DNA from: Rhodospirillales bacterium
GTDB lineage: Bacteria; Pseudomonadota; Alphaproteobacteria; Rhodospirillales; JASLQF01
Assembly: GCA_030744625.1 (NCBI GenBank)
Contig: JASLQF010000005.1
Location: 8,482-72,481, forward strand
Length of the DNA stretch: 64,000 bases
Reading direction: 5' to 3'
Shown here: positions 41,096 through 64,000 of the stretch, piece by piece
Layout of the letters: every line of letters begins with the position of its first letter
Numbering within the stretch: the stretch's first letter is position 1
The notes under the pieces: generated by a model
Seen by the model: the letters and a program-made list of their open reading frames with translations, nothing else
Told to the model about the DNA's origin: nothing
Database searches by the model: none
Translations under genes and position numbers: made by a program

Positions 41096-41152
41096 GGCGA
41101 TTTGCTCCCTGTTTCTGTGTCGTTATCGAATTATTGTCGCGTAAACGGCACT

Positions 41153-41168
41153 AAATTGTATACAATTT
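41153..41168. promoter_or_regulatory. Perfect 16-bp palindrome, candidate GntR operator between uraD and the GntR gene
   Basis: AAATTGTATACAATTT, read directly from the sequence. It fits the FadR-subfamily t.GT-N-AC.a pattern and lies in the 110-bp AT-rich divergent region. Confidence 0.55.
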
Positions 41169-41205
41169 ATTTCCTGCATTCCGATCCTCGAAAAGGCCCT
41201 TCTCG

Positions 41206-41949: not shown

Positions 41950-42060
41950 TGGCCCCGCGGTCTTTTCGCGAACATCCCGTGGTCGCCGAGGTGTTCGGTT
42001 TCCTGTAGTATTTGCGTGCCGTGGGATGTTGCAGGGGTGCGCAGCGTAAGGGGAGAGACC

Positions 42061-43260: not shown

Positions 43261-43285
43261 ACCCAGGGCGTTCGGAGAAAGCCTC

Positions 43286-43729: not shown

Positions 43730-43812
43730 AAAAATCCGTGAAACGAGGGCTATGATTCCATCGACGATACGCTACATTCAGGAAGAAATCACACAAGCAC
43801 GAGGAGAGAACA

Positions 43813-44814: not shown

Positions 44815-44867
44815 TCCCAGGAGCACGCGGCCGGCGGCGGGGGAATCGGAGACCGGAGGCGCGGCAC

Positions 44868-45770: not shown

Positions 45771-45796
45771 TTGGCCCGGGACCGGGCAGGAGTGCC

Positions 45797-48978: not shown

Positions 48979-49000
48979 GGGGACCGGCGCGCGCCGGCGC

Positions 49001-49534
49001 TCAGGTCTCGATGGGTTCGCCCCGCTCGATGGCCTCTTGCCAGTAGCCGGTGCTGCCGGCGGCGGGAACGTGGACGAACTCGAGCTTCAAGCCGTCGGGA
49101 TCGAGGAAGAAGACGGCGTAGTAGCCCGGCTCGTAGTCGTATTCGGCGGGAGGGTCGAGGACGGTGGCGCCAATGTCGCGGAGAAGCGCGTGGAAGCGAT
49201 CGACCTGGCCACGGTCCTCGGCGTTCCAGGCGAAGTGGTGCAGACCCGGCGCGTAGCGGTCGTGGGGCCTGTCCAGGGAATTGGCATGGGCGGCGCTGAC
49301 GATTACCCACCGCAGGCCGTCTCCCGGGGTCATGGCGGCCCAGGCCAGCCGGGTGGCGCTTTTCTCGACCAGCCGGTAGCCCATGAAGCCGAGAATGGCG
49401 CCGTAAAACGCCTCGGCGCGCCCGATGTCGGCGACCGTGAAACGGACGTGGTTCAGGGTGCCGAGGCGGGGCCGGCGGTCGGCCGGGAAATCGGCGCGCG
49501 GTGGCACCGTCGTATGGTCCAGCGCCTTGGCCAT
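49001..49534 (-). CDS. VOC (glyoxalase/bleomycin-resistance/dioxygenase) family protein
   Basis: Track ORF 49001..49582, with an in-frame ATG at 49532-49534. LNHVRFTVADIGRAEAFY and FFLDPDGLKLEF. Confidence 0.7.
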   Translation of the reverse strand: MAKALDHTTVPPRADFPADRRPRLGTLNHVRFTVADIGRAEAFYGAILGFMGYRLVEKSATRLAWAAMTPGDGLRWVIVSAAHANSLDRPHDRYAPGLHHFAWNAEDRGQVDRFHALLRDIGATVLDPPAEYDYEPGYYAVFFLDPDGLKLEFVHVPAAGSTGYWQEAIERGEPIET

Positions 49535-49551
49535 GGGTTGGATTCTATCCC

Positions 49552-49956
49552 CTAAAGACCGCCCATTTCGGAACTCTCGCACGAGAGGTCGAACTGCGAA
49601 AGGCCTTCTTCCAGGTAGTCCGGAAGCAAGGGCATGCCGAGCAGGTATTCCGCGGTATGCTCGTTGTGGGCGCGTTCCGCCTCGGCCAGCGCGTCATCCC
49701 ATTCGTCCTTGGTGAAGTCGCCGCGCCCTGTCCAGGCGAGGGCCACCAATTGGCATTGTTCGTCCCAGTTGAGGCCGTTGATGAAGGTTTTCAGTTCCTC
49801 GAAAGTCGGATCGCCGATGGGGGCGGCGCGCTCCTCGTCGAGTTCCTCGTCCTCCGGGTCGGCTGCGTATTCCGGCCCGGCGGCGCTTTCGTGGACCTCG
49901 AACTCCCGCCCCTTGGCGACGATGTAGCAGACCTTGTCGCTGTCGATTTCCGGCAT
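49552..49956 (-). CDS. DUF3775 domain protein
   Basis: Track ORF of 134 aa. LNWDEQCQLVALAWTGRGDF...TAEYLLGMPLLPDYLEEGL matches my memory of DUF3775. Confidence 0.6.
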   Translation of the reverse strand: MPEIDSDKVCYIVAKGREFEVHESAAGPEYAADPEDEELDEERAAPIGDPTFEELKTFINGLNWDEQCQLVALAWTGRGDFTKDEWDDALAEAERAHNEHTAEYLLGMPLLPDYLEEGLSQFDLSCESSEMGGL

Positions 49957-50165
49957 CGCTTAGTGCTCCGTGTTCCTCATGGACCGCCTAGCGGTGGTCC
50001 CGTTCACCTTGGCGTGTCGTCGTGGCGAATGGAACACCCAGCGGCGCGTCCGATCCTTGATCTCGATCAATGCCTGGCCGCCGGGTAACCGCGCGCGCCA
50101 CGCGTCGTGTTCGTCGAACTCCGTGGTATGATGATCAAGGAGACTTTCGGGGAAGGGAGCGGGCG

Positions 50166-50558
50166 ATGACCACCGATCTTTTCTACCTGACGCTGACCGC
50201 GGGGCTCGGTGTGATCCTGTGGATTCCCCACGTGGTCGGGGCCATCCGCAAATTCGGATTTCCCAAGGCCGCCGATTTCAGGGAGACGCGGGACCGGGGG
50301 CTCGACGCTTTCGGACGGCGCGCTCAGCGCGCCCACGCCAACCTGGTCGAAAATCTGGCGCCGTTCGCAATTCTCGTCATCGTCGCCCATGTGGGCGGCG
50401 CCGCCAACGAGACAACGGCCGCCGCCGCCATGGTCTTCTTCTGGGCGCGGGTCGCCCACGCGTTGATATTCTACGCCGGCATCCCATACCTCAGGACGGT
50501 GGCGTTCGTCGTCGGCATCGCCGCCGAGGTCGCGATCTTCGTGGAAATCGTCACCTGA
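50166..50558 (+). CDS. MAPEG family membrane protein
   Basis: In-frame ATG at 50166 within track ORF 50070..50558. 130 aa with hydrophobic helices and RAHANLVENLAPF. Confidence 0.65.
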   Translation: MTTDLFYLTLTAGLGVILWIPHVVGAIRKFGFPKAADFRETRDRGLDAFGRRAQRAHANLVENLAPFAILVIVAHVGGAANETTAAAAMVFFWARVAHALIFYAGIPYLRTVAFVVGIAAEVAIFVEIVT

Positions 50559-51351
50559 GGGCGGCGACACCGTCGCCCTCCGGAGCCAAGTGGCGACCCA
50601 GGATCTCGGCAAGCGCCACGACGCGGCCGATGATGACCAGCGTCGGCGTCCCGAGGCCGGCCTCCTCGATGGCATCGGGCAGCGCGGCAAGGGTGCTGGT
50701 CACCGTCCTTTGTTCCGGCGTGGTGCCCTTCTCGATGGCCGCCGCCGGCAATTCCGGCGGCATCCCGACGGCCAGCAGTTCGCCGCATATGCGGGCCACG
50801 TTCTTCAGCCCCATGTAGACGACGAGGGTGGTTTCCGGGTCGGCGAGCGTCTTCCAGTCGAGGTCCAGGTCCTGGTCGTCCTGGCGGTGGCCGGTGATGA
50901 AGCGCAGCCCCTTGGCGATGCCGCGATGGGTCAGCGGGATGCCTGCGTAGGCGGCGCAGCCGGCCGCCGCGGTGACGCCCGGCACCACCTCGAAGGGGAT
51001 GCCGTTCTTGGCCAGGTGCACGGCCTCGTCGCTGCCGCGCCCGAAGACGAAGGGGTCGCCGCCCTTGAGGCGCATGACCCGGCGTCCACTGCGCGCCAGG
51101 TTGACCAGCAACTCGTTGATCTCGTCCTGGGGCATGTGGTGGTCTTGCGCCGCCTTGCCGACGAAAATGCGGGTCGCCCCGGGGGGCACCATGTCGAGGA
51201 TGGGCGGTGAAATCAGGCGGTCGTACACCACCACGTCGGCCTCCTCGAGGAGCCGCGCCGCCTTCACGGTCAGAAGCTCGGGGTCGCCCGGCCCGGCGCC
51301 GACGATGAGGACCGGGGGAATGGCATCGGCGCCCTGTTTTGATTGCGTCAT
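50551..51351 (-). CDS. cobA: Uroporphyrinogen-III C-methyltransferase (SUMT)
   Basis: Track ORF 50551..51387, with an in-frame ATG at 51349-51351. VGAGPGDPELLT and KGGDPFVFGRG. Confidence 0.85.
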   Translation of the reverse strand: MTQSKQGADAIPPVLIVGAGPGDPELLTVKAARLLEEADVVVYDRLISPPILDMVPPGATRIFVGKAAQDHHMPQDEINELLVNLARSGRRVMRLKGGDPFVFGRGSDEAVHLAKNGIPFEVVPGVTAAAGCAAYAGIPLTHRGIAKGLRFITGHRQDDQDLDLDWKTLADPETTLVVYMGLKNVARICGELLAVGMPPELPAAAIEKGTTPEQRTVTSTLAALPDAIEEAGLGTPTLVIIGRVVALAEILGRHLAPEGDGVAALR

Positions 51352-51502
51352 CGGTCGGCCAGCCTTTCCTTGTTGCGTTCGCTCCACATGGATTTGGCCA
51401 TGGCGGTGACCTCGTCAAGCTGGTCGGACGCGACGACATTTAATATACCGCGCCGGAGCCTTTTTACATGGAGATCTTGCCGCCGCCCATTCCACCAAAC
51501 GG

Positions 51503-52450
51503 CTATCTGCAACGGAGAGCGGAGAAATACGCGGCCAAAGCAGTTATTTCCCCCTCGGCGAGGTTTGCCGTCTGCCGGGCCATGATCCGGTGATAGCGTG
51601 ATTCCTCGTGATCGATGAGTTCCTCTTCCCGGCTGGTTTTGCGGAAAGCCTTGAGCTGCTTTATCAGATACCCCTCTTTCTGTCCCGCCAAATTAGGGAT
51701 GCCGGGATGTTTGCCCATGCCGTTCTGGCCATGACAGGCGGCGCATTGTTGGGCCTTGGCAGGCGCCGGAGGCGTGGCCTCGACCTCGGGAAGGGCGCAT
51801 GACCGGCTGGCGAAGTAGGCCGCCGCATTCTCTATGTCGGCGGTGCTCATTTCCGCCGCCAAGGGTTTCATTATTCGGTCATGGCGGGCGGCGATAACCT
51901 TATCGCCGGATTTCTGCGCCAGGGGGATTTCCCGAAGCTGCCACAGTTGAATTTTGAGGTACCCCTCTTTCTGGCCGGCGAGATTTGGAATCATCGGATG
52001 CTGGCTGACGCCCGCCGCGCCGTGACAGTTGCCGCACTCCGCCGCGCTGACCCATGCCTTTCCCGCTTCGGGCTCGCCCGCTCTGGCGGTGGACACGGTC
52101 TTACTGGCGAGACAACGCGTGATGGCGAGACGCTGCTCTACCTTTTCGATGTATTGCCTCAGCGGCTCGCCTTCGACCCTGATCTTATCCTTGGTGACGA
52201 CGGCGCCGTCCCTGTCGTGGACCTCCCGCAGTTTCTCGAGCTGGGCTGCCCACTTCTCGACATAGGGCGCCCATTCGCCGCCGTACCTCTTTTCGACGAA
52301 CTCGACCATCTTTTCGTGGGTGACGTTCTTCCACCACGCAACATCGGGAAGAGGCGCGCACTCCTCGGCCTTCGCGGCCCCCGCCAACGCTATGGCCAGC
52401 CCGGCCAAGAACAACAAAGCGCCGAGGCGGTGTTTGGGCTTCACATTCAC
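51503..52450 (-). CDS. Diheme c-type cytochrome (c4-like) with unknown N-terminal domain
   Basis: Track ORF of 315 aa. Signal peptide, a domain of about 120 aa without recognisable motifs, then CGNCH and CAACH heme sites, each followed by IPNLAGQKEGYL. Confidence 0.8.
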   Translation of the reverse strand: MNVKPKHRLGALLFLAGLAIALAGAAKAEECAPLPDVAWWKNVTHEKMVEFVEKRYGGEWAPYVEKWAAQLEKLREVHDRDGAVVTKDKIRVEGEPLRQYIEKVEQRLAITRCLASKTVSTARAGEPEAGKAWVSAAECGNCHGAAGVSQHPMIPNLAGQKEGYLKIQLWQLREIPLAQKSGDKVIAARHDRIMKPLAAEMSTADIENAAAYFASRSCALPEVEATPPAPAKAQQCAACHGQNGMGKHPGIPNLAGQKEGYLIKQLKAFRKTSREEELIDHEESRYHRIMARQTANLAEGEITALAAYFSALRCR

Positions 52451-52456
52451 CTCCGC

Positions 52457-52897
52457 TCAGGCGCAGCCATCGAAGCCCTCCGCCGCCATCTTGGCCTCAT
52501 AGGGGCCGGCCACATCGGGGCCGGGGGTGAGGGTGGGCTTGACGGCCTCCCAGCCTTCCGGCTTGAGGACGACCAGCCAGCCCTCCACATAGGGGTCCTC
52601 GTTGGCGATGTAGGGCTTGGCGACCAGCGCCTCGTTGATGGCGACGATCTCGCCGCCCACCGCCGACTTGGCGGGGCCCACCCACTTTCCCGATTCGATG
52701 GTGGCGCACGATTTTCCGGGCTTGACGGAACGCCCCGCCTTTTTCGGCGTCACCGCGACCAACTGTCCGGCCAGGGCCGCCGCCACGGCGGTCATGCCGA
52801 CGCGCAGGTTGCCGTCGTCGAGTTCCTGGAACCACATGTGGTTCTCGACATCGTAAATCCGGTCCTCGGGTAGGTTGCAGCCGCGCACCACAGGCAT
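52457..52897 (-). CDS. lbpA: GcvH-like lipoate-binding protein (LbpA type)
   Basis: Track ORF of 146 aa. HMWF...GMT and the lipoyl-Lys context ATIESGKWVGP...GEIVAINEAL. It is adjacent to the hdr genes. Confidence 0.75.
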   Translation of the reverse strand: MPVVRGCNLPEDRIYDVENHMWFQELDDGNLRVGMTAVAAALAGQLVAVTPKKAGRSVKPGKSCATIESGKWVGPAKSAVGGEIVAINEALVAKPYIANEDPYVEGWLVVLKPEGWEAVKPTLTPGPDVAGPYEAKMAAEGFDGCA

Positions 52898-52940
52898 GGT
52901 TTTCCCCTCGATCCACCCGCCGATTGAGGGCCTTTATGGC

Positions 52941-53357
52941 TCAGCCCGCTGCCGCATGCAACGGCTTGGACGAGCAGCAGAATTCGCCGAGCCCCGCCAC
53001 CTCCATCTTGCCGGCGACGAACAGCAAGAGGTGCGTCGCCACCAGGCTGGCCATGACCAGGCGCCGCCGGGCCTCCGGGTGGCTGGGCTCCATGGTAATG
53101 AGATTGTGGTGGTAGACGAGCTCGCGGCAGGTCTCGCGGCAGGCGTTGAAGCTGGGCTCGCCGCGGGCGCCCTGGCGGTGCAGCGCCAACAGCCGGAACC
53201 CCTCGCGCCTTTCCCGCGTCGGCGTCTCGCCGCGCGCCGCCACCCAGTGCTCGAGGATCTCCTCGCCGAGGGCCAGGAGTTCGGCCGCTGCCGAGGCGGC
53301 CTCCGCCGCCTGGGCGAGCTCTTGGATGCGTGTTTCGATGGCGGCGAGGTCTCTCAC
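52941..53357 (-). CDS. Hypothetical 138-aa protein coupled to hdrB2
   Basis: Track ORF of 138 aa. Its GTG start overlaps the hdrB2 stop (GTGA, per track coordinates). Helical N-part, CRETC (Cx3C) and a C-terminal FCCSSKP. No family recognised. Confidence 0.5.
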   Translation of the reverse strand: MRDLAAIETRIQELAQAAEAASAAAELLALGEEILEHWVAARGETPTRERREGFRLLALHRQGARGEPSFNACRETCRELVYHHNLITMEPSHPEARRRLVMASLVATHLLLFVAGKMEVAGLGEFCCSSKPLHAAAG

Positions 53358-54280
53358 GCCAACCCCTTTTCCTTGAGGAATCCGATCGAGTCGGAAATGT
53401 TCTCGTGCACGCCCACCTTGCGCGGCTTGAGCCCCAGCGCCAGGCCGAGGAGCTGGGTGAAGTAGAGAACCTTCACGGTGGTCTTGACGCCGAGCATCTT
53501 CTCGGCGCGCACCTGGTGCATCTCAAGCCCGGTGTGGCAGGTCGGACATTCGGTGGCGATCACCTCGGCGCCGGCGGCCTCCGCCGTTTGCAGCAGGTTG
53601 AGGACGAGCTTGGTCGAGATGTCGGAATCCGACAACGTGTGCGCCCCGCCGCAACACGCGGTCTTCAGGGGATAGTCGACGTTTACGGCGCCCGCCGCGG
53701 CGAGCAGGTCGTCCATGAAGTGGGGCTGGGAAGTGGATTCGCTGCCCGCGCCCTGGTCCTTCTCCGGGAAGATGTGGCGTGGGCGGGTGTACATGCAGCC
53801 ATAGTAGTTGGCGACGCGCAGGCCCTTTAGCGAGTTCTTGACGCGCTCCCCGAGGCCGTCCTCGCCGATCGCCTCCTTGATCCAATCGAGGGCGTGAATG
53901 GTCTCCAGGTTCCCCGCCTGGTAGGCGGCGTGGCCGGCCGCCTCGGACAGCTTGCCGACCACATCGCGGCTCTCCTGGTCGTCGGCGAGGTCGTATTCCG
54001 CTTTCTTGAGGTTGTGGTAGCAGCCGTTGCACGGTGCCATGACCGCGTCGAAGCCCATCTCTTTGGCGGCGATCGACATGACCCGCGAGGACAGATAGGT
54101 CTGCAGCTTGGGATCGACGTTCTTGACCTCCATGGCGCCGCAGCAGTTCCAGTTCTTGACTTCCACCAGGTCAAGGCCGAGCGCCTTGCCGAGCGCCCTG
54201 GTCGAGCGGTCGTAGGCGTGGCCCGAGCCCTCCAGGGCACAGCCCGGGTAGTAGGCGACCTTTTGATATTTTTGCGCCAT
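53354..54280 (-). CDS. hdrB2: sHdr heterodisulfide-reductase-like subunit B2
   Basis: In-frame ATG at 54278-54280 within track ORF 53354..54850. MAQKYQKVAYYPGC, with two CCG motifs (NWNCCGA, TACCGGA). Confidence 0.8.
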   Translation of the reverse strand: MAQKYQKVAYYPGCALEGSGHAYDRSTRALGKALGLDLVEVKNWNCCGAMEVKNVDPKLQTYLSSRVMSIAAKEMGFDAVMAPCNGCYHNLKKAEYDLADDQESRDVVGKLSEAAGHAAYQAGNLETIHALDWIKEAIGEDGLGERVKNSLKGLRVANYYGCMYTRPRHIFPEKDQGAGSESTSQPHFMDDLLAAAGAVNVDYPLKTACCGGAHTLSDSDISTKLVLNLLQTAEAAGAEVIATECPTCHTGLEMHQVRAEKMLGVKTTVKVLYFTQLLGLALGLKPRKVGVHENISDSIGFLKEKGLA

Positions 54281-54297
54281 GGGTGCCCGCGCCCTTC

Positions 54298-55044
54298 CTA
54301 TTCCGTTGCCTTGTCGACCAGGCCGAGCGCGGCGCGGCGCCGCGCTTCCTCTTCCGCCACGTGCTCGGCGATGGCGGCGCGGGCGCGCCCCCAGCCCCGG
54401 GTGCGCGGCCGCAAGATGGTGAACCATCCCATGGTCATCAACTGCTTGAGGGGCAGGTGGCGGACCATGCGCCTGACCATCTCGACCAGCCATTCCTGGA
54501 CGAGAGGCTGGCTGGTGCGCCGGAAGAAGTCGCGGACGATGCGCCCCTCCTCGATCTTTCCGGTGGCGAACACCTGCTCCGAAAACACTTCGTCGAAGAG
54601 GATGGAAGGCGATTTCGGCCGGTGGCCCTTGAGTTCCAGCCAGTGCGCCGTGGCCTTCATGACCCCTTCCGGCGCCACGTCGCGCGGACACGCGTAGGTG
54701 CACTTGTTGCACGACACGCACTGCCAGATGATGTCGCCGTCGCGCAGCAGCTCCTCTTCCATGCCGATGCGGATCAGGTAGATCCAGTAGCGCGGATTGA
54801 AGTCCTCGTTGACGGCGTAGACCGTGCACGAATTGGTGCACGAGCCGCACTGCCAGCAGCGGTGGATGTGCTCACCCCCGGGCAGCGCCGCGATCTCTTC
54901 CTCGAGGTCCTCGTTGTAGTCGGTGACGACCCGCGATCCGATGAAGGTGCTCCAGTGCCCCGAGACGTCGACGCCGTCGATCTCGAGCTCCTCGTGGACG
55001 TGCAGGTTTTCCGGGCGGATCAGGGATTTTTCGTGAATGGGCAT
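54298..55044 (-). CDS. hdrC2: sHdr heterodisulfide-reductase-like subunit C2
   Basis: Track ORF of 248 aa. CWQCGSCTNSC and CVSCNKCTYACP ferredoxin-type motifs. Confidence 0.8.
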   Translation of the reverse strand: MPIHEKSLIRPENLHVHEELEIDGVDVSGHWSTFIGSRVVTDYNEDLEEEIAALPGGEHIHRCWQCGSCTNSCTVYAVNEDFNPRYWIYLIRIGMEEELLRDGDIIWQCVSCNKCTYACPRDVAPEGVMKATAHWLELKGHRPKSPSILFDEVFSEQVFATGKIEEGRIVRDFFRRTSQPLVQEWLVEMVRRMVRHLPLKQLMTMGWFTILRPRTRGWGRARAAIAEHVAEEEARRRAALGLVDKATE

Positions 55045-55060
55045 GGGTTTGGGGGCGCCG

Positions 55061-55951
55061 TCAGTTCAGGGATTTGGGGTCGTCGAGCCGGCGCGCCTCG
55101 CCGTCCACCGCCTTGAGCCGCGTCCGACCGGAGCGTGGATTGACGCCATCCAGGCCAAGCATGCGGCGCACATGCGCCATGGGGTCCTCGGGCGAGGAAA
55201 AGTCGGCGCGCAGGAAGGCGCCGCCCCGCACCCCGATATAGGCCGCGTAGATCTGCGCCACCAGCAGGTCGGTGTACAAGAGAACGTCGCGGAAAACCCC
55301 GTTGTCGCCGAGGAACTGGCAAAGCTCCTGGCGCAGGACGAGGAAGGTCGCGTAGGTGTCGGGCACGTCGATGATCACGCGGTCGATGTCCTCGGCGTGC
55401 CATATCTCGCGCAGGACGCCGGTGTTGGCGGTGGCGTCCCACACCCACCGGCACATGAGGGGGTAGAGCTCGGGGTCGGTGTAATGAAGGACCTCGGCGG
55501 CCAGATCGTGCACCCAGCGGTGCGCCCGGTCCTTGGGGAAGCGGGCGGTGAAGGCGCGCACCCGAGCGTCGACGGTCGAGGTATCGTGGGCACCCTGCAA
55601 CAACTCGGCGACGGCATCGCGGACCGCCGCGAAGCCGTCGGCTTTGAGGCGCGCGCCGATGCGCCGGCGCACCGGCGCCATGAGGGCGCACAGCGCCAGG
55701 AAGGAGGGCTCGTCCATGCGGCCGGCCCGGCCGTCGGCCAGTATTTCCTGGAACAGCGCGACCTTGTGTCCCAAGGCGCTCACGTAGCGTTCGATGCCGC
55801 CTTCCCCCTCGCTTTGCGCGATCAGGGACTGCATGGCGGCGGTGATCGGCGGGCCACTGAGTTCGAGGACGGGGCGATCCGTCCCGGGGCCGGCGTTTAG
55901 GCCTGGGGGTGGCAATGGGCGGGGCGCCGTTGTCACCGTGGATACCCTCAC
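55061..55951 (-). CDS. Conserved hypothetical protein of hdr loci ('hyp')
   Basis: Track ORF of 296 aa. The GTG start overlaps the hdrA stop (GTGA). It occupies the position between hdrA and hdrC2 as in described sHdr loci. No motif recognised. Confidence 0.6.
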   Translation of the reverse strand: MRVSTVTTAPRPLPPPGLNAGPGTDRPVLELSGPPITAAMQSLIAQSEGEGGIERYVSALGHKVALFQEILADGRAGRMDEPSFLALCALMAPVRRRIGARLKADGFAAVRDAVAELLQGAHDTSTVDARVRAFTARFPKDRAHRWVHDLAAEVLHYTDPELYPLMCRWVWDATANTGVLREIWHAEDIDRVIIDVPDTYATFLVLRQELCQFLGDNGVFRDVLLYTDLLVAQIYAAYIGVRGGAFLRADFSSPEDPMAHVRRMLGLDGVNPRSGRTRLKAVDGEARRLDDPKSLN

Positions 55952-56997
55952 TTGGCCGCCGCCCGCCCACCGTGCAGGAAGGTGTAGGCGGCCATTGCCG
56001 CGGCTTGTGCCTGGGCGATGGAATCGTTGATGGTCTCCGGCCCGGTGGCGGCGCCGGCCACGAAGACGCCGGGTCGTGACGTGGCGCCCATGGCGTCATA
56101 GACGCTGGCCCGTCCGATGTGGCCGTGGGGTTCGAGATCGACGCCGAAGACAGACGACAAGAGCAGGTTGTCGACGTTGGGGTCCATGCCGATGGCGTGC
56201 ACCACCAGGTCGAAGGGAATGGTGATGGGCCGCTTGACCAGCGTGTCCTCGCCCTTGACGATGAGCCGCTCGCCATCCGACGTCACCTCGGCGATGCGCG
56301 CCTTGATGTACTTGACCTTGAATTCCTCCTGGCTCTTCCAATAGTAGAGATCCTCGTTGAGGCCAAAGGTGCGGATGTCCATGTAGTAGATGTAGACGTG
56401 GCACTCGGGCAGTTCCTCGCGGATCTCCATGGCCAGGTTGGAGGCGACGGTGCAACAGATCTTGGAGCACCACTCGCGGCCGATCTGGCGGTCGCGGGAG
56501 CCGACGCAAAGCAAGATGGCGACGCGCTTGGGCTTGCGTCCGTCGGACGGGCAGCGCACGCCGTCTCCGGACGAGAACATCTGCTCGACCTGGGTGGTGG
56601 TCACCACGTCGGCGTGGGTGCCGAAACCCCATTCCGGCTTGTTCACCGAATCGAAGTGGGTGAAGCCGGTGCACAGGATGGCGGCGCCGGCCTCGATCCC
56701 GGAGCCGTCGGTGAGCCGCGCCGTGAAGGCGCCCGCCTCGCCCGAGAACTCCTCGACGCTCGCCCCGGCGCGCACCTCGACGAGGTCGTTGGCGCCGACC
56801 CGTTCGACCATGGCGCCGATGGCGTCCCTGGCCCATTCGCCCGACGGCACCAGCTTGGCGTAGCCGGACAAGATCGGCGCGCCGCCGAGGCGGTCCTCCT
56901 TCTCGACGAGAACGGTCCTCTGGCCGATGGAGGCGAGCGCGTACGCCGCGGTCAAGCCGGCCGGGCCGCCGCCGACGATGAGGGCTGGCTTGCTCAT
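55948..56997 (-). CDS. hdrA: sHdr heterodisulfide-reductase-like subunit A (FAD, 4Fe-4S)
   Basis: In-frame ATG at 56995-56997 within track ORF 55948..57822, overlapping the hdrB1 stop (ATGA). VGGGPAGLTAAYALA and CVGSRD...REWCSKICC. 349 aa with no ferredoxin insert, as in the sHdrA type. Confidence 0.85.
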   Translation of the reverse strand: MSKPALIVGGGPAGLTAAYALASIGQRTVLVEKEDRLGGAPILSGYAKLVPSGEWARDAIGAMVERVGANDLVEVRAGASVEEFSGEAGAFTARLTDGSGIEAGAAILCTGFTHFDSVNKPEWGFGTHADVVTTTQVEQMFSSGDGVRCPSDGRKPKRVAILLCVGSRDRQIGREWCSKICCTVASNLAMEIREELPECHVYIYYMDIRTFGLNEDLYYWKSQEEFKVKYIKARIAEVTSDGERLIVKGEDTLVKRPITIPFDLVVHAIGMDPNVDNLLLSSVFGVDLEPHGHIGRASVYDAMGATSRPGVFVAGAATGPETINDSIAQAQAAAMAAYTFLHGGRAAAK

Positions 56998-58376
56998 TGG
57001 GCGTCGGACTTCTCGATGCGCTCGATGGGCTTGAAGCCGGGTCCCGAGGTGATCATCAAGCGGGGGTCGTAAAGGGTCTCCTGGCGTCCCGCCTCGATGT
57101 CCTTCAGGTAGGCCTCGAACTCCGCCTTCTTGGCCCGCCAGTCGATGCCGAGTTTTTCCATCAGCGTCTCGACGGGCGAGGCGTGCCAGTGGGACTGCAC
57201 GATCTTGTACGGGTGCGCCCCGCACACCAGGGCCGCGAACTGGCAGTCGGCGAGGATGGGAAGTGCCACCTCCTTGCCCGCCGCCTGGCTGATCCACTGG
57301 TTTTTGTCGAGGGTCGTGATGCAGCCCGTGTCGTGGCCGACCATGATGTCGGCGCGCGCCTCCTCGACGGCGACGCGCACCTTGCGGTCGATGGCGAAGG
57401 AGCGCGTGAATTCGCGCTCCGCGATGATGTGGCGGAACCCGAAGCCGCAGCAGTCGTACCAGGTGGAATAGTCGATGACCTGGCAGCCCAGGGACTCCAT
57501 GAGGCCGGTGGACACCGCCAGCCGGTTGCCGTCGAGAATCTCGTCGTCGTAGATGGCGTCCTCGGGCACCATCTTGTAGACGTGGCAGGCCGGATGGATG
57601 GTGGCCCGCACGTCGGCGCAGTCGAACTCCTGGTGATTGGCGATGGCGTTGCGCATCACGTGCACCCACTCGGAGTAGTGGACGATCTCCTCGGGAACCA
57701 GGAGCTTGCCGTCGACCAGCCGCCCCAGCTTGCCGAGAATCTCGGTGACGCGGGCGCGCAGTTCGGGTGAGCGCAGCAGGTATCCCCGCACCTCCTTGTA
57801 GTTGCCGAACGACGTTCCGCAATGCACCAGCGGATAGAAATGGCCGTCGGGCAGGCCCTGGGCGCGGGAGGACACGTAAGCCTGGTGGAAGTTACGCAGG
57901 AACACGGCGACCAGGCTCTCCAGGTTGCCGATGCCGGAGCCATGATAGTTCCACGCCGTGCACGAGGTCTGGTCGGTCTCGTCCAGGTACTCGATGTCCA
58001 TCTTGTTCATGAGCCACAGGAGCGAGGTCGGGTATCCCGGGATGTTGCCGCACTGGCCGCACGATTTGTGGTGCCACAGCCGCCGGGTGGGGATTGTCTT
58101 GTCCCACCCGTAGAGGGTCTTGACCGTTACCGGGTCGTGGCTGTCGGCGACCCGGTGGACGACGATCTCGCCGTCCTTCTCGAGCTGCCACATGATGTCG
58201 CGCACGTCCTCGACGCGGTCCTTGTTGGTAAGCATGGAGCGCTTGTCGACGCGCTGCTCGACCCAGGCGGTGGCGGTGCGCGCCTCGTCGGCGCTGAGGC
58301 CGGCGTCCTTCCACTCGGGTCCGTGTCCGGTGAACTTTTCGCCATCGTTCGTGCCCATGCGATCATCCGTTGCCAT
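56994..58376 (-). CDS. hdrB1: sHdr heterodisulfide-reductase-like subunit B1
   Basis: Track ORF of 460 aa. CCG domain (WYDCCGFGF) plus Cys-rich HHKSCGQCGN. Confidence 0.8.
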   Translation of the reverse strand: MATDDRMGTNDGEKFTGHGPEWKDAGLSADEARTATAWVEQRVDKRSMLTNKDRVEDVRDIMWQLEKDGEIVVHRVADSHDPVTVKTLYGWDKTIPTRRLWHHKSCGQCGNIPGYPTSLLWLMNKMDIEYLDETDQTSCTAWNYHGSGIGNLESLVAVFLRNFHQAYVSSRAQGLPDGHFYPLVHCGTSFGNYKEVRGYLLRSPELRARVTEILGKLGRLVDGKLLVPEEIVHYSEWVHVMRNAIANHQEFDCADVRATIHPACHVYKMVPEDAIYDDEILDGNRLAVSTGLMESLGCQVIDYSTWYDCCGFGFRHIIAEREFTRSFAIDRKVRVAVEEARADIMVGHDTGCITTLDKNQWISQAAGKEVALPILADCQFAALVCGAHPYKIVQSHWHASPVETLMEKLGIDWRAKKAEFEAYLKDIEAGRQETLYDPRLMITSGPGFKPIERIEKSDAQ

Positions 58377-58380
58377 GTTC

Positions 58381-59142
58381 TCAATCCTCCTCGTCGTCGT
58401 CCGCCTCGTCCTGTTCCTCGAGCCAGTCCTCGTAGTCCTCGCGCTTCTCGTCGATGATGTCGGTGATTACGTCAAAGAGGTTCTCGTCGATGCCCTCGAG
58501 CCGGTCGAGGACGCCGGTCATTTCCCAGATGGTGTAGAGTTCGATGGAGGTCTTCAGGTTGACCTCCCACGCTGTCTCCGTGGTGTTGAGGGTCGGCACG
58601 GGGATGGCCTTGCGCAGGATGTCGAGCGGTGCGTCCACCTTCGAGATGTTGGGCCCCCAATCAGGGAAATGGTCGGGGGTGACCATGTCGGGCGCCAGCT
58701 GGTTGCCCGTCGAGATCAGCTTCAGCATGACCCGGCTGAAAGGGCGCAGAACGTTCTTGGCCGATTCCATGCCGTGCTTGATGGCCGCCTCGCGCATGAT
58801 CATGATGAGCCCGCCCGGGGAATTGCCGAACGGGCAGCGCGCGGCGCAGGTGTAGCACTGGGCGCAGGCCCAGATTTTCTCCTGCATGGCGTCGTGGATG
58901 CCTTCCAGGTTTTCGGTCCACAGGAGCTGTACGATTTCGCGCGGCGAGAAGTCGAAATAATAGGCCGCCGGGCAGGTCGCCGTGCAGATGCCGCAGTTGA
59001 GACAGCCGTTCAGTTCGTGGTCGTAGCGGGCGTCTTTCTGGATGTCCTGGAATATGTCTTCCAGGTCTTGGCGCGGCATCGCCGGTGCGTCCGAAACCGG
59101 ATCGCCGATGTGTTCCTGAACCCTGGTGCCCGTGCCGTGCAA
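58381..59142 (-). CDS. hdrC1: sHdr heterodisulfide-reductase-like subunit C1
   Basis: Track ORF of 253 aa from a TTG start; an alternative ATG lies 21 codons in. CLNCGICTATCP and CAQCYTCAARCP motifs. Strongly acidic C-terminal tail EEQDEADDDEED. Confidence 0.8.
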   Translation of the reverse strand: MHGTGTRVQEHIGDPVSDAPAMPRQDLEDIFQDIQKDARYDHELNGCLNCGICTATCPAAYYFDFSPREIVQLLWTENLEGIHDAMQEKIWACAQCYTCAARCPFGNSPGGLIMIMREAAIKHGMESAKNVLRPFSRVMLKLISTGNQLAPDMVTPDHFPDWGPNISKVDAPLDILRKAIPVPTLNTTETAWEVNLKTSIELYTIWEMTGVLDRLEGIDENLFDVITDIIDEKREDYEDWLEEQDEADDDEED

Positions 59143-59154
59143 GGTGCACCGCCC

Positions 59155-59532
59155 CTAGTAGGTGAGGACCTTGCAGTCCCCCTCCATGACTTCCTCGATC
59201 ACGTAGGCGCCGCCGACGATGCCCGAGCATTCGGGGATCAGGTCGTCCTCGGTCATGTCGAAAAGGTCGAGATTGGGGGAGCAGCAAGAGAACTTGACGC
59301 CGGCCTCGTGGGCATCCTTGATAAATTCGTAGACCGACTTATCGGAGCCTTCCTTGACGAAAAGATTTTCGGCGACGCCTTTTTTCATCAACTGGCCGGC
59401 GGCGGCGGTGCACACCACCTCGACCTCGTATTCCATTGCCGCCGCCACGGACGCCTGAAAGAACGGCGCCCCCAGCTCCTCCCCATTGCGGGGATCGGTA
59501 TTCACCAGGATCATCAGCAGCTTATCCGCCAT
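59155..59532 (-). CDS. dsrE: DsrE/DsrF-family sulfur-relay protein
   Basis: Track ORF 59155..59586, with an in-frame ATG at 59530-59532 (MADKLLMILVNTDP). 125 aa, with Cys pair FSCCSPN. Confidence 0.7.
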   Translation of the reverse strand: MADKLLMILVNTDPRNGEELGAPFFQASVAAAMEYEVEVVCTAAAGQLMKKGVAENLFVKEGSDKSVYEFIKDAHEAGVKFSCCSPNLDLFDMTEDDLIPECSGIVGGAYVIEEVMEGDCKVLTY

Positions 59533-59616
59533 CGATGCCTCGCCCCGTACTATGAGTGGAAACCCGGGCCCCAATCCCGCAAGCAAACACCAGGCCGGCG
59601 CGTTTGGTTAAGCCCG

Positions 59617-59670
59617 GTTTCGAATATTAGAGTTTCCTAAAATAAAAGTCAATATTAATAAAATACCAAC
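59617..59670. promoter_or_regulatory. AT-rich divergent control block with two AATATT palindromes
   Basis: Hand count gives 11 G+C in the 50 nt 59621-59670, against very GC-rich flanks. AATATT occurs at 59623-59628 and 59651-59656, 28 bp apart. It lies between dsrE-hdr (minus) and ubiD-like (plus). Confidence 0.4.
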
Positions 59671-59844
59671 GCAATCATCGGGCGTTTTCGTGATCTGGAC
59701 GCGCGCCCATCTCGGCGGGCGAAACTTGCGTGCGCCCGAGCGCTGTTGCCAAGGCGGCGAAGGCGTGAACATTATCGCGCCAGCCGGAGAGCCGCGCCCG
59801 CTTCGAGCGTCGTTGCGCGGGCCGGACGATGAGGGAGGAACCAG

Positions 59845-61293
59845 ATGCCTTTCGAGAGCCTGCGCCCCTATCTCGACGCGCTCGAGAAGAACGGCGTGTT
59901 CAAGTGGGTCGATCGCGAAGTCGACAAGGACTGGGAGATTAGCTGCGTCGGGCGCATGCTGTTCCGTGCCATGCCCGAGGAACGCCGCATCGGCATTGGC
60001 TTCAACAACATCAAGGATTTCCCCGGAAGCCGCGTCGTCGCCGGCGTCATCGCCGCCTCCGAGCCGATGGTGGCCACGGCGCTGGAGTGCGACGCCAATG
60101 CGGCGGCCATCCACGAGCGCCTGATCCGAGGCCTCACCGACCCCATCGATCCGGTGATGGTGGAGGACGGCCCCTGCAAGGAGGTCATCCTCGGCCCCGC
60201 CGACGCCGACCTGGGCGCGATCCCCGCCCCCATATGGACGCCGAGCAAGGACGCCGGCCCCTACCTGACGCCGCTGTGGGTGACCAAGGACCCGGACAGC
60301 GGCCGACGCAACATCGGCATCCGCCGCTGCCAGATCAAGGGCCGCGACAAGACGGGCATCCTGTTCGGCGCCCCCGACCGCGGCGGCGCCATCCATCACG
60401 AGAAGTGGAAGAGCCTCGGCAAGCCGATGCCGGCGGCCATCTTCATCGGCGGCGATCCCGTGCAGTACATTGTGGCGCCGTCGCGCTACGGCCCCGACGA
60501 ACTCAGCGTGGCCGGCGGCGTGCGCGGCGAGGCCATCGAACTCGTCAAGTGCGAGACCGTCGATCTCGAGGTCCCGGCCACCGCCGAAATCGTCATCGAG
60601 GGCGAGGTGTCGACCGATTATACCGAGCCCGAGGGCCCCTTCGGCGAGTTCACCGGCTACATGGCCGGCGGGCGCCAAGGCCCGGTGTTCACGGTCAAGT
60701 GCATCACGCATCGCAAGGACCCCATCGTGCTCGGCGTGATCAGCCAGTTCCCGCCCAGCGAGAGCAGCATGATCAAGCGCATCCTCTTGGAAGCGAGCCT
60801 GCTCAAGCACGTCGGCCAGGACCTCAACATCCCCGGCGTCGTCGACATCCACGCCCTGGAGGCGGGCGGCTGCACGGCGACGCTGTGGGTCAGCATCAAG
60901 AAGATGTACACCGGCCACGTCGATCAGGTGGTGTTCGGCATCCTCGGCTATTTCGGGATGAGCTACTACAAATGGATCATCGTCACCGATGATGCCGTCG
61001 ACATCCGCGATCCCTTCATGCGCGACTGGATCATGGCCTGGCACGTGCAACCCGACCGCGACATCCGCATCCTTGCCAACACCGCCGCCGTCGAACTCGA
61101 CCCGTCGGGCTATCCCCCCGACGAGAACCCGGACGAAAGGCTGGGCGGCAAGGTCATCATCGACGCCACCAGGAAGTTCGATTTCCCCGACCTCTCGCTG
61201 CCGCCCATGCAGTACATGAAGCGCGTCGTCGACAGCTGGGACGACTACGGCCTACCGCCGCTTGATGAGCTTAAATTGCCCAAGAATGTCTGA
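59845..61293 (+). CDS. UbiD-family (prFMN-dependent) decarboxylase/carboxylase
   Basis: Track ORF of 482 aa. LRPYLDALEK start, RNIGIRRCQ, and EGPFGEFTGYMAG catalytic-Glu loop. Confidence 0.85.
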   Translation: MPFESLRPYLDALEKNGVFKWVDREVDKDWEISCVGRMLFRAMPEERRIGIGFNNIKDFPGSRVVAGVIAASEPMVATALECDANAAAIHERLIRGLTDPIDPVMVEDGPCKEVILGPADADLGAIPAPIWTPSKDAGPYLTPLWVTKDPDSGRRNIGIRRCQIKGRDKTGILFGAPDRGGAIHHEKWKSLGKPMPAAIFIGGDPVQYIVAPSRYGPDELSVAGGVRGEAIELVKCETVDLEVPATAEIVIEGEVSTDYTEPEGPFGEFTGYMAGGRQGPVFTVKCITHRKDPIVLGVISQFPPSESSMIKRILLEASLLKHVGQDLNIPGVVDIHALEAGGCTATLWVSIKKMYTGHVDQVVFGILGYFGMSYYKWIIVTDDAVDIRDPFMRDWIMAWHVQPDRDIRILANTAAVELDPSGYPPDENPDERLGGKVIIDATRKFDFPDLSLPPMQYMKRVVDSWDDYGLPPLDELKLPKNV

Positions 61294-61307
61294 GGCGCGC
61301 CGCGCCT

Positions 61308-62882
61308 TCACGCCGCGGCGTTCTCCTTGGTCCACATATCCCTGAGATCGCGGCGCAGCACCTTGCCGCGGGCGCTCTTGGGAAGGGCGTCGACGAAGTG
61401 GAACGCCTTGGGCACCTTGAAGGCGGCGAGGAGCTTCGCGCAGTGGCTTTCGATGTCGTCGGCGGTTAGGCGCTCTCCCGGCTTGGCCACCACGTAGCAC
61501 ACGATCTCCTCGCCGTAGATGGGATCGGGGACGCCGACCGCCGCCGCCTCCGCCACCTTGGGGTGCGTCATCAGGGCGTTGTCGATCTCCAGGGGCGCGA
61601 TGTTGACGCCGCCCCGGATGATCAGGTCCTTGGAGCGCCCCGTTACGCGCACGAAGCCCTCGGCGTCCATCACCGCCAGATCGCCGGTCTTGAGCCGTGC
61701 CCCGACGTGGTCCTCGTACTCGCCCTCCGGCGAGATGGTGGCCATGCACGCCTGCGGCCCGCCCACCGTCACCTCGCCCTCGACGCCGGGCGGACAGGCA
61801 TAGCCGGCGCCGTCGACGATCAGGAACTGCTGGTACTTCGCCGGCATGCCGACGGTTCCCGGCATTCTGTTGTAGTGGCGGTTGCCGCACACCCATCCAC
61901 CCTCCGAGTAGCCGTAGAGAGGCAGCAGCCTGACCCCGTACATCTCCTCGAAACGCCGCCACTGCTCGGGGCTGATCGGCGCCGTCGAGCACGTCATGTA
62001 GCGCAAGCTCGGGATGTCCTCGGCGGTGATGCCGAGGGGCTCGTTGAGCAGCATGTTGATGACCGTCGGCACGCCGGCCGCGAAGGTGATGCCGTGGTCC
62101 TTGATCCAGTCGAAGAAGCGGCTGCGCGAGAAACGCCGTGCCATGTGCAGGCTCAGCCCGAGCTCGAGCATGGGCATGAGACTGAGGATCTGGGGCGAGT
62201 TCCAGCTGAAGGAGCGGTAATCGAGGGTGCGGTCATCGGCGGTCAGTCCGATGAAGTCGATGGAGTTCTGTCCGTTCAGCCAAAAGGCCCGGTGGGTGGA
62301 GATGAGGGACTTCGGCGTCGCCGTGGTTCCCGAGGTCGAATGGATGGCGGCGATCTGCTCGGCGTCGTTCTCGATGTCGAGTTCGGGTGCCGCCGCGACC
62401 CCGGCGAGCGCCCTGAACAGCTCGTCGGCGGGCGCGTCGTCGACCGCCGGCCAGCGCGCCACCATGATCTTGTCGACGTCGATTTCCGAGGTCAGCCCCG
62501 GCCCGTCGACCTCCTCGTGCCAGAGGATCAGCTTGGGCTCGATGTGGCCGAGCAAACGGTTCATGTGGGCGGCGTTCATCTCGACGTTGGTCGGGCACAC
62601 CACGGCGCCGAGCCGCCAGATGCCGAGCCAGCAGATCAGCTTCTCCAGGTTTTCGTCGGACAACAGCGCCACCCGGTCGCCCTTGCGGATACCGCGATCG
62701 TAAAGGAAGCGCGCCATGCGGTTGGCGATGTCGTGGAGCTCTCCCCAGGTGACCCCCTTGTCCTGGTCGAGGTCGTGAATCGCCGTCTTGGCGGGGTGGC
62801 GGTCCCTGTATTTGATCAAGAGCGAGCGGACGGTTTCGAACGGCAACTCCGGCTCCGGGTACGGCTCGCCTAGGAGCACCAT
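61308..62882 (-). CDS. AMP-forming acyl-CoA ligase (adenylate-forming superfamily)
   Basis: Track ORF of 524 aa. HSTSGTTATPK (A3), TGDLAVMDAEGFVRVTGRSKDLIIRGG, and a C-terminal KSARGKVLRR. Confidence 0.85.
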   Translation of the reverse strand: MVLLGEPYPEPELPFETVRSLLIKYRDRHPAKTAIHDLDQDKGVTWGELHDIANRMARFLYDRGIRKGDRVALLSDENLEKLICWLGIWRLGAVVCPTNVEMNAAHMNRLLGHIEPKLILWHEEVDGPGLTSEIDVDKIMVARWPAVDDAPADELFRALAGVAAAPELDIENDAEQIAAIHSTSGTTATPKSLISTHRAFWLNGQNSIDFIGLTADDRTLDYRSFSWNSPQILSLMPMLELGLSLHMARRFSRSRFFDWIKDHGITFAAGVPTVINMLLNEPLGITAEDIPSLRYMTCSTAPISPEQWRRFEEMYGVRLLPLYGYSEGGWVCGNRHYNRMPGTVGMPAKYQQFLIVDGAGYACPPGVEGEVTVGGPQACMATISPEGEYEDHVGARLKTGDLAVMDAEGFVRVTGRSKDLIIRGGVNIAPLEIDNALMTHPKVAEAAAVGVPDPIYGEEIVCYVVAKPGERLTADDIESHCAKLLAAFKVPKAFHFVDALPKSARGKVLRRDLRDMWTKENAAA

Positions 62883-62901
62883 GGTTTTCCTCCTCGGCGC
62901 T

Positions 62902-64000
62902 TCAGTGGCCGGTGCGGGCTAGCGTGCGCGCCCAGTTGGTCATGCGTGCCTTGGCGTTGTCGATGTCCTCTTTGCCGAAGAACTTCTCCGGCGACACCTT
63001 GTCGATCGGATACTTGGGACGCATGAAGTCCTTCTCGTAGCCGAAGGGCACCGTGGCGTCGATGGCGAGGCCCCCCTCGAAGCGGGTGTTGGACGCCGTC
63101 CACGCGCCTTCCCCCGCCGTCATCCGTTCCGACGGCATGAAGGTCTGCCCGCGCCCCCCGGGCAGCGGGTTGAGGAGGTCGGAGAGCGGATTGACCCGCG
63201 TCGTGATGCACCACATGATGTCGTCCATGTCGTAGGCATCGGTGTCTTCGGACACCGCGATGCACAGGCGCATGCCCTGCGACGTGGACAGCAGCGCCGT
63301 CATGAAGTTGCGCTGCCAGCCCTCGTCCAGCTTGTTGCGTTTCTTCACCTGGATGACGGCACCGCCCCAATCGGTCATGCAGTAGGGGATGTTCACGTCC
63401 TGGACGATGCCCGGCTGCAATCGCCGGCACACCTCGTACATGGCCGCCTCGCGGATGGCCGTATCCATGTTGTGTTCGTCCAGGGTGTGCGGGCTGAGCA
63501 CGTGGACGATCGGCCTGGAGGCCGGCTCGCGCATGGTCACCGCGGTGACGTGGAGGGTCGGCGCCTTGTAGGCCTTGCCCATGTAGCCGGCCCACTCGGG
63601 GTGGAAGTGGGTTTTCCCCTGGACGCCGGCTTCCTCCGCCTCGGCCGTCTCGTAGCGGCGGTCACGGGCATCCACGTAGCCCTCGAGCACGATTTCCGAA
63701 TCGGCGATCGCCATGGCGTCCACCGTGCGCGCCTTGACCAGGCGCACGGGCGCGCCTTGCGCCGCCCCGGCGACCCCGATCTCGTCGCACCCGTGGGGCA
63801 GGATGATGTAATCGAAGGCCGCCCCGGCCAAGAGCGTGCACGCCGGCGGCACGCCGAAGCACATGGTGATGGGCACCGGCTTGTCGTCCTCGTAGTGCTT
63901 GGAGACCACCTGCCACATGTGCGAGCCCGGGGAGATCTGGAAGGTGCCGACGTTGCCCCAACGGAAGTTCATGCGGTTGTAGCCGAGATCGGACCCGCCG
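62902..64000 (-). CDS. Second UbiD-family decarboxylase (5' end outside window)
   Basis: Track ORF 62902..63972. The frame stays open upstream to 64000 (...GGSDLGYNRMNFRW), so the listed Met is internal. It has the UbiD C-terminal architecture and an HPEWAGYMG loop equivalent to GEFTGY. Confidence 0.7.
   Translation of the reverse strand, partial: GGSDLGYNRMNFRWGNVGTFQISPGSHMWQVVSKHYEDDKPVPITMCFGVPPACTLLAGAAFDYIILPHGCDEIGVAGAAQGAPVRLVKARTVDAMAIADSEIVLEGYVDARDRRYETAEAEEAGVQGKTHFHPEWAGYMGKAYKAPTLHVTAVTMREPASRPIVHVLSPHTLDEHNMDTAIREAAMYEVCRRLQPGIVQDVNIPYCMTDWGGAVIQVKKRNKLDEGWQRNFMTALLSTSQGMRLCIAVSEDTDAYDMDDIMWCITTRVNPLSDLLNPLPGGRGQTFMPSERMTAGEGAWTASNTRFEGGLAIDATVPFGYEKDFMRPKYPIDKVSPEKFFGKEDIDNAKARMTNWARTLARTGH

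Follow-up and report, generated by a model that had tools for sequence, protein, structure and literature searches.

A canonical type I sHdr-LbpA operon is very probably present in an uncultured marine Rhodospirillales bacterium

When a cluster of sulfur-oxidising Hdr-like (sHdr) genes is found beside unfamiliar neighbours, does it represent a variant of the pathway or the standard system? This question is raised by a 64,000-nucleotide stretch of contig JASLQF010000005.1 (assembly GCA_030744625.1, a Rhodospirillales bacterium), hereafter called the window, in which ten tightly packed genes lie on the minus strand at 51503-59532, according to the open reading frame (ORF) listing and Pfam and NCBIfam assignments. 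The original prediction, made from the letters alone, described a complete sHdr-type locus in which an orphan gene, a periplasmic cytochrome and a uroporphyrinogen-III C-methyltransferase (SUMT) gene stood in place of the lipoate-assembly genes that usually travel with lbpA. We consider it very probable that the region is a canonical type I sHdr-LbpA operon, dsrE3C-shdrC1B1AHC2B2-shdrI-lbpA, of an uncultured marine Rhodospirillales bacterium. The unrecognised accessory set is made up of the subunit sHdrI, an effect of the window edge that hid slpl and lipX, and two lineage-specific insertions (a UbiD module and a cytochrome c4 gene) beside a resident cobA. The ten genes, in a window with a G+C content of ~66%, are listed below in the order of transcription, with lengths in amino acids (aa).

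59155..59532, minus strand: dsrE3C-type sulfurtransferase gene, 125 aa, 378 bp (Pfam DsrE/DrsE_2)
58381..59142, minus strand: shdrC1, 253 aa, TTG start, 2x[4Fe-4S] ferredoxin-like (best NCBIfam matches are HdrC families)
56994..58376, minus strand: shdrB1, 460 aa, divergent HdrB with one CCG motif (Pfam CCG, NCBIfam HdrB)
55948..56997, minus strand: shdrA, 349 aa, flavin adenine dinucleotide/[4Fe-4S] flavoprotein (match to 6TJR)
55061..55951, minus strand: shdrH (formerly "hyp"), soluble protein (same position in 72 related loci)
54298..55044, minus strand: shdrC2, 248 aa, 2x[4Fe-4S] (Fer4 families, HdrC/QmoC matches)
53354..54280, minus strand: shdrB2, 308 aa, canonical HdrB with two CCG domains (TIGR03288, 151 bits)
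52941..53357, minus strand: shdrI, 138 aa, the former "orphan" (homologues and synteny)
52457..52897, minus strand: lbpA, 146 aa, lipoate-binding GcvH-like protein (Pfam GCV_H, 103 bits; under the NCBIfam GcvH cutoffs)
51503..52450, minus strand: periplasmic cytochrome c4-type diheme protein with a ~95-aa extra N-terminal domain (match to 1ETP, two CxxCH motifs)

Type I sHdr systems have been delimited in the literature by an shdrC1B1AHC2B2 core in one syntenic cluster (PMC11094781), and in the window this core occupies 53354-59142 in the published order and on a single strand. The sHdrA protein matches PDB entry 6TJR, the sHdrA of Hyphomicrobium denitrificans, which also has 349 aa, with 582 bits (E 2.7e-174) over residues 3-339, whereas its matches to methanogen HdrA reach at most 200 bits and cover residues ~100-340 only; its length is that of the short sulfur-oxidiser form and not of the ~650-aa methanogen HdrA. 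sHdrB1 reaches only 38 bits against methanogen HdrB in the PDB, and sHdrB2 reaches 126 bits against methanogen HdrB 5ODC. All subunits are 52-83% identical to the genes at the same positions of a Hyphomicrobium locus. Together with the gene order and the 6TJR match, these identities bear out the original prediction of a complete sHdr-type locus. DsrE3C has the Cys83-Cys84 pair and the 378-bp gene of H. denitrificans DsrE3C (HdDsrE3C), in which Cys84 is the sulfur-binding residue. The sHdrH protein, a name used in PMC11582611, has no Pfam or NCBIfam match.

One genome per GTDB species was scanned with the 138-aa protein, and 80 loci were retrieved from Alpha- and Gammaproteobacteria. In tblastn comparisons of these loci, the order dsrE-hdrC1-B1-A-hyp-C2-B2-orf138-lbpA was found wherever the contig was long enough, and the median identities to the window proteins, from dsrE to lbpA in that order, were 81, 84, 80, 78, 53.5, 71, 79, 65 and 67% (59 loci for dsrE3C, 72 for shdrH and 77 for lbpA). 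Among the species representatives, the nearest sHdr proteins come from Kiloniellales, Rhodospirillales and an Inquilinus-labelled metagenome-assembled genome (MAG), with 62-87% identity. In H. denitrificans the type I locus, Hden_0683-0696, reads lipS1-lipT-lipS2-slpl(AB)-lipX-dsrE3C-shdrC1B1AHC2B2-shdrI-lbpA2; the window has the same order from dsrE3C to lbpA, including sHdrH and sHdrI, and a single lbpA.

The gene calls and cofactor motifs agree with this assignment. The co-directional minus-strand set from dsrE to lbpA, followed by a diheme cytochrome, was recovered in the ORF listing and the Pfam and NCBIfam matches, and three overlaps of 4 nucleotides (nt) noted earlier are present (ATGA at hdrB1/hdrA, GTGA at hdrA/hyp and GTGA at hdrB2/orf138). 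Each HdrC has eight cysteines in two CxxCxxCxxxC motifs, the pattern for 2x[4Fe-4S]; the earlier statement that CxxCxxCxxxCP occurs twice in each is right for HdrC1 and has to be amended for HdrC2, in which the first motif is CxxCxxCxxxCT and the second CxxCxxCxxxCP. The other predicted motifs are all in place: two CCG motifs in HdrB2 and one in HdrB1, C164VGSRD and C177SKICC in the 349-aa HdrA, and the lipoyl-lysine motif ESGKW at residue 68 of LbpA, whose gene lies 43 nt downstream of shdrI. Two starts deserve comment. For hdrC1, the long TTG start at 59142 was chosen because the N-terminus GTRVQEHIGDPVSD is conserved in homologues, and for shdrH, with candidate starts at GTG 55951, GTG 55936 or TTG 55915, the start is placed upstream of ATG 55834 because a conserved RPVLxLSGP motif precedes that ATG.

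Upstream of dsrE3C, a promoter-like sigma-70 site (TTGACT-17-TAATAT) lies in AT-rich sequence on the minus strand at 59652-59624, ~90 nt from the gene, and a plus-strand promoter-like site (TTGCCA-18-CATTAT) lies at 59746-59775. An Rfam scan of 48000-64000 gave no match. Two AATATT elements ~30 nt apart surround the promoter-like hexamers in window 59600-59700; this pair could be an operator, and no ArsR-type regulator gene lies nearby.

What, then, is the 138-aa "orphan"? The protein has 6097 homologues at E <= 0.001, is present in at least 579 species genomes, and its gene adjoins hdrB2 and/or lbpA in 79 of the 80 related loci, including that of Hyphomicrobium sp. L025 (69% identity). It forms a compact family, of only 146 clusters at 50% identity among 1.8 billion representatives, and is better conserved than sHdrH. 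In H. denitrificans, dsrE3C is Hden_0688 and lbpA2 is Hden_0696, and Hden_0695 therefore falls between shdrB2 and lbpA2; this gene bears the name "sHdrI" and is induced along with the shdr genes, its log2 fold changes being 3.39, 2.98 and 2.39 (PMC12423496, supplementary tables). Judged from homologues and synteny, the "orphan" is the conserved subunit sHdrI, the counterpart by position of Hden_0695, and the earlier view of it as an unrecognised gene is set aside. The AlphaFold (AF2) model of sHdrI, with a predicted local distance difference test score (pLDDT) of 84.6, is a five-helix bundle with a disordered C-terminal tail. Helix 4 carries C73xxxC77, in which Cys73 is invariant and Cys77 nearly so; His60, His83, His93 and His109 are invariant, and the disordered tail terminates in an invariant GEFCC. 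A fold search against the PDB returned generic helical bundles only (best E 0.2), and a profile search against PDB sequences found no relative. The pattern of cysteines, histidines and GEFCC points to a flexible arm that takes part in metal, Fe-S or persulfide chemistry.

The original prediction also stated that the window has no sLpl, LipS1 or LipS2 gene. This is true of the window but misleading, because contigs that are 99.96-99.99% identical to the window, used past its right edge, add 7.4 kb (71.4 kb in all) and bring in an slpl(AB)-type gene that starts ~1.3 kb past the window end. The features on this side are as follows, with those beyond the edge given in window-equivalent coordinates.

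59533..59844, no strand: divergent intergenic region with an AT-rich promoter-like stretch 5' of dsrE3C
59845-61293, plus strand: UbiD-family decarboxylase gene (Pfam, NCBIfam)
61308-62882, minus strand: acyl-CoA ligase gene (Pfam, NCBIfam)
62902 onward, minus strand: second UbiD-family gene, running off the window end and ending at ~64494 (Pfam, NCBIfam)
~64585-65307: lipX-type gene, 240-aa GATase-like
~65315-66385: slpl(AB)-type lipoate-protein ligase gene, 356 aa, LplA-B_cat with an LplB-like C-terminus

The lipX and slpl(AB) genes thus lie ~0.6-2.4 kb past the right edge, and they are followed by a DedA-family gene, a 212-aa hypothetical, yidD, yidC and an EngB-like GTPase gene. The sLpl protein is identical to MDP6572092.1, encoded by a Rhodospirillales bacterium MAG. 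Both genes are thus present just outside the window, and the idea that other accessory genes stand in place of the lipoate genes is not supported. The slpl(AB) and lipX genes are adjacent both here and in H. denitrificans, whereas lipS1-lipT-lipS2 adjoin slpl in H. denitrificans and do not in the window lineage. The usual arrangement is well documented: lipS1-(lipT)-lipS2-slpl-lipX-dsrE was found in nearly all of 80 metagenome loci retrieved with LipS2, and lipS2-slpl-lipX lies upstream of dsrE in 38 of 44 evaluable genome loci. The genomes L016 and L020 (Kiloniellales/Rhodospirillales), whose core proteins are 62-87% identical to those of the window, and the metagenome contig L176 have the order lipT-lipS2-slpl-lipX-dsrE3C-shdr-shdrI-lbpA and so keep the upstream lipS2 and lipT. 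The window lineage, lacking lipS1, lipT and lipS2 at the usual place, departs from this norm, though with precedent; lipX alone lies upstream in six loci, and four Hyphomicrobium-like loci have at that place an EamA-like transporter gene, as judged from sequence only. We infer that lipS1, lipT, lipS2, tusA, soxT and the regulator lie elsewhere in the genome. In a scan of metagenome contigs with the LipS2 of the nearest relative, none of the 80 loci came from the window organism; L160 and L101, considered as possible stand-alone lipS2 contexts, were dropped because nothing ties them to that organism.

Three genes (UbiD, acyl-CoA ligase, UbiD) separate lipX from dsrE3C in the window lineage, unlike in H. 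denitrificans. This module, at L001:2081-6724 on the extending contig, occurs at none of the 80 GTDB loci and none of the 80 metagenome loci other than in this lineage. Across Alphaproteobacteria, Binatia, Vicinamibacteria and Zixibacteria the divergent UbiD protein keeps 70-80% identity, and the pair of UbiD and AMP-ligase genes recurs in an alphaproteobacterial MAG and a Binataceae contig (L172, L173). A part in lipoate assembly was considered for the module and rejected, the pair occurring in L172 and L173 without any sHdr or lip genes. We take it for a separate catabolic unit that came to lie within the cluster; it looks like a horizontally mobile (de)carboxylation module for some acid.

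Downstream of lbpA, the question becomes whether the cytochrome and SUMT belong to the system. Two sister lineages provide the comparison, L174 (~92% DNA identity) and L175 (87-91%), both of which blastn places at the same chromosomal site, with the shdrC1B1AHC2B2-shdrI-lbpA-cobA backbone shared and the same neighbours past cobA. The features concerned are listed here.

51365..52456, no strand: segment of 1.09 kb with the cytochrome gene and its flanks, in the window lineage only (blastn)
50551..51351, minus strand: SUMT, uroporphyrinogen-III C-methyltransferase gene of the cobA / cysG C-terminal type (TIGR01469)
50166-50558, plus strand: MAPEG-family gene, in a 1.0-kb segment
49552-49956, minus strand: DUF3775 gene, in the same 1.0-kb segment

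Residues 122-309 of the cytochrome align with the entire cytochrome c4 1ETP of Pseudomonas stutzeri, and 6Q2U is matched as well. As in that protein, there are two class I c-type haem domains with CxxCH motifs (here CGNCH and CAACH) and PNLAGQ...Y, and the full length of c4 is matched; the protein also appears to be exported as a c4 is, which is judged from its N-terminus, MKPKHRLGALLFLAGLAIALAGAAKA, read by eye and not with a predictor as a Sec signal peptide. Unlike 1ETP, it has an extra N-terminal domain of ~95 aa, conserved in its family with invariant Cys29, His43, Trp58, Tyr61, Trp65 and Cys111, and two further invariant cysteines, Cys216 and Cys312. Only about a dozen full-length relatives were found, at 31-43% identity, and the three that were looked up stand alone in housekeeping contexts with no sulfur genes nearby. 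The gene starts at GTG 52450 or, more likely, at GTG 52444, which has GGAGG 5 nt before it, so that the start lies 6-12 nt after the lbpA stop. Its G+C at third codon positions (GC3) is 0.75, compared with 0.83-0.93 in neighbouring genes. In addition, one metatranscriptome contig crosses the lbpA/cytochrome junction, and a terminator scan found no terminator-like site between lbpA, cytochrome and cobA on the coding strand, a result of little weight because the whole scan was no richer than shuffled sequence. The cytochrome gene is probably co-transcribed with, or read through from, the operon.

The gene nevertheless lies outside the conserved sHdr system. It was found at none of the other 80 sHdr loci, and it was rejected as a recurrent sHdr partner on this count together with the housekeeping contexts of its homologues and its absence from the sister lineages. 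In L174 and L175 the 1.09-kb segment is missing and SUMT comes straight after lbpA, which marks the cytochrome as a recent, population-specific insertion; and because it is periplasmic, it cannot serve as a direct electron outlet of the cytoplasmic sHdr. The SUMT protein scores 312.3 bits against TIGR01469 (cutoff 185) and is of the CobA / CysG C-terminal type. The lbpA stop and the SUMT ATG share bases in L174 (TGATG), and in L175 a spacer of ~30 nt intervenes (L174:10860-10940, L175:10860-11030). The gene lies beside lbpA at none of the 80 other loci and is seen there in this narrow clade only, where cobA is the ancestral downstream neighbour of lbpA and, in the L174/L175 clade, in effect closes the sHdr operon; the adjacency is most simply explained by shared ancestry. 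It is thus a resident gene and not the replacement that the original prediction took it for. The cytochrome c4 gene and cobA after lbpA distinguish the window lineage from H. denitrificans, as does a neighbourhood without shdrR, soxT1A, tusA, cytochrome P450, rhodanese or sox genes. Among the relatives, L176 carries tusA and a Sulf_transp gene downstream, and L016 and L020 an ArsR-type and a YeeE/SoxT-like gene; the window lineage has none of these.

Other differences cluster around the same island. A second segment, the 1.0 kb at window 49536-50539 with the MAPEG and DUF3775 genes, lies near the cytochrome insertion and is likewise absent from L174 and L175. On the other side, L174 has a transposase where the window has the ligase and second UbiD genes (a DUF4372 / DDE_Tnp_1 pair at L174:403-1598, just beyond the UbiD gene), and L175 lacks both dsrE3C and the UbiD module, with a TetR/4HBT fusion gene directly upstream of shdrC1 (L175:3039-4977). 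In these two lineages the upstream edge of the sHdr island is a rearrangement hot spot.

The locus itself shows which genes and motifs it has, their order and their orthology; the chemistry is carried over from homology with H. denitrificans and would run as follows. Sulfane sulfur may be bound by Cys84 of DsrE3C in persulfide form and would then reach the sHdr-LbpA system through a sulfurtransferase cascade. There, the iron-sulfur flavoprotein complex sHdrAA'B1C1B2C2 is expected to oxidise it to sulfite in the cytoplasm, with sHdrB1 as the proposed catalytic subunit and sHdrB2 as the proposed disulfide reductase. LbpA, presumably essential for the pathway here too, needs its lipoyl group, which sLpl(AB) would attach, and sHdrH and sHdrI would act as conserved soluble partners. 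The lipoamide arm of LbpA is proposed to join in the redox reaction.

Could the operon instead be a decaying relic, in a clade that has lost genes for sulfur import, sulfur transfer and lipoate synthases and in which the operon is becoming non-functional? The neighbourhood is eroded in comparison with relatives, the 71.4 kb holding no lipS1/T/S2, tusA or soxT; dsrE3C is gone from L175 as well, a transposase lies close upstream in L174, and foreign modules have been inserted. However, none of the nine genes is truncated, every cofactor motif is intact, and the ratio of nonsynonymous to synonymous substitution rates (dN/dS), compared between the window and L174 and L175, which are 8-13% apart in DNA, is 0.14-0.39 for all sHdr genes including shdrI and lbpA (0.14-0.22 for sHdrI), except that the value for shdrH against L175 is unusable because an in-frame stop in an N-terminal extension broke the alignment. 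Selection on the sHdr genes is purifying. Many seawater metagenomes contain the population, and a marine metatranscriptome has short RNA contigs that fall on hdrA, on the ligase gene and across the lbpA/cytochrome junction. The full-length genes, the dN/dS values, the presence in seawater, the RNA contigs and the promoter-like site therefore argue against a relic, which we regard as very improbable, and we infer that the operon is functional.

A reading closer to the original prediction is that of a variant sHdr system, in which the orphan, the periplasmic cytochrome and SUMT replace the lipoate genes and provide another route of LbpA maturation or another electron outlet. It can call on the absence of lipS1, lipT and lipS2 from the canonical place and from the 71.4 kb, on the close spacing of the cytochrome gene behind lbpA with a strong ribosome-binding site, no terminator-like site and one RNA contig over the junction, and on SUMT directly after lbpA in both sister lineages, overlapping it in L174; moreover, the literature leaves unsettled where type I sHdr passes its electrons. 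Yet the orphan is a standard sHdrI, slpl(AB) and lipX are present, and the nearest relatives keep the operon under purifying selection without the cytochrome, which, as a Sec-exported c4, is topologically apart from cytoplasmic sHdr and whose full-length homologues stand alone away from sulfur genes, while the SUMT-lbpA adjacency is limited to one narrow clade for which shared ancestry suffices. A variant in this sense is quite unlikely. It is more improbable still, to the point of being hardly credible, that the locus encodes another Hdr-like complex that does not oxidise sulfur (methanogen-type HdrABC, Flox-Hdr or LutABC-type). The NCBIfam matches are to methanogen Hdr, Qmo and Glc families only, but all lie far under the cutoffs; HdrA, at 349 aa, lacks the N- and C-terminal domains of the long HdrA, with ferredoxin and inserted domains, expected of such complexes and nearly equals H. 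denitrificans sHdrA in length and sequence, the duplicated C/B pairs stand with sHdrH, sHdrI, DsrE3C and LbpA in the published type I order, and no mvh, flox or lutA/lutC partner genes lie in the neighbourhood.

Several points weigh against the assignment as a canonical type I operon. With LipS2, LipS1 and LipT of relatives as tblastn queries, no homologues or remnants were found in the 71.4 kb, and the same 71.4 kb holds no tusA, soxT, ArsR-type regulator or sox genes; no TusA (CPxP) ORF or homologue was found in the window or the 7.4 kb beyond, although published surveys describe sHdr systems as always accompanied by TusA and DsrE proteins. The RNA support consists of three short, low-depth contigs, for which DNA carry-over is possible. 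The orthology of sHdrI to Hden_0695 is positional, drawn through the Hyphomicrobium sp. locus and not from direct sequence comparison, and membership of the sHdr clade is judged from identity levels, synteny and the 6TJR match.

A more speculative and compound proposal, which we hold to be unlikely as a whole, is that the clade has a streamlined module without dedicated LipS1/LipS2/LipT, TusA, SoxT or Sox, with an shdrC1B1AHC2B2-shdrI-lbpA-cobA core and with dsrE3C and slpl-lipX retained in some lineages. LbpA would then be lipoylated by sLpl(AB) salvage or by housekeeping LipA, the sulfane sulfur would be internal (e.g., from organosulfur catabolism) and not imported thiosulfate, cobA and the captured cytochrome c4 would be real functional additions, and sHdrI would, separately, be a redox or sulfur-carrying partner. 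The invariant CxxxC, the conserved histidines and the disordered GEFCC tail of sHdrI could suit such a redox or sulfur-carrier role.

Elsewhere in the window, 46558-48978 encodes an 806-aa multi-pass membrane protein whose central part weakly matches polyamine aminopropyltransferases and which has no Pfam match; it is conserved in L174 and absent from L175. What looks like a region for purine/urate catabolism, with no link to sulfur oxidation, lies at ~37600-45800 in synteny with L174 and L175; its genes include those for an OHCU decarboxylase, a transthyretin-like protein (HIU hydrolase), a Bmp-family ABC-transporter binding protein, a GntR protein and an amidohydrolase. The stretch at 8000-10100 has a G+C content of 0.587 compared with ~0.66, and the adjoining ORF at 9078-10898 has a GC3 of only 0.76; a foreign origin of this stretch is possible.

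The most useful general lead from the very probably canonical type I operon is sHdrI, which is as widespread as the proteobacterial type I loci examined and has no structural relatives. For the scoring of sulfur oxidation in metagenomes by gene cluster, the locus illustrates that views limited by a window or a contig make a standard locus seem a variant. An uncultured marine Rhodospirillales population is added to the known hosts of type I sHdr, and in it the accessory genes for lipoate synthases, TusA, SoxT and the regulator would be freely unlinked from a core that is kept under purifying selection.

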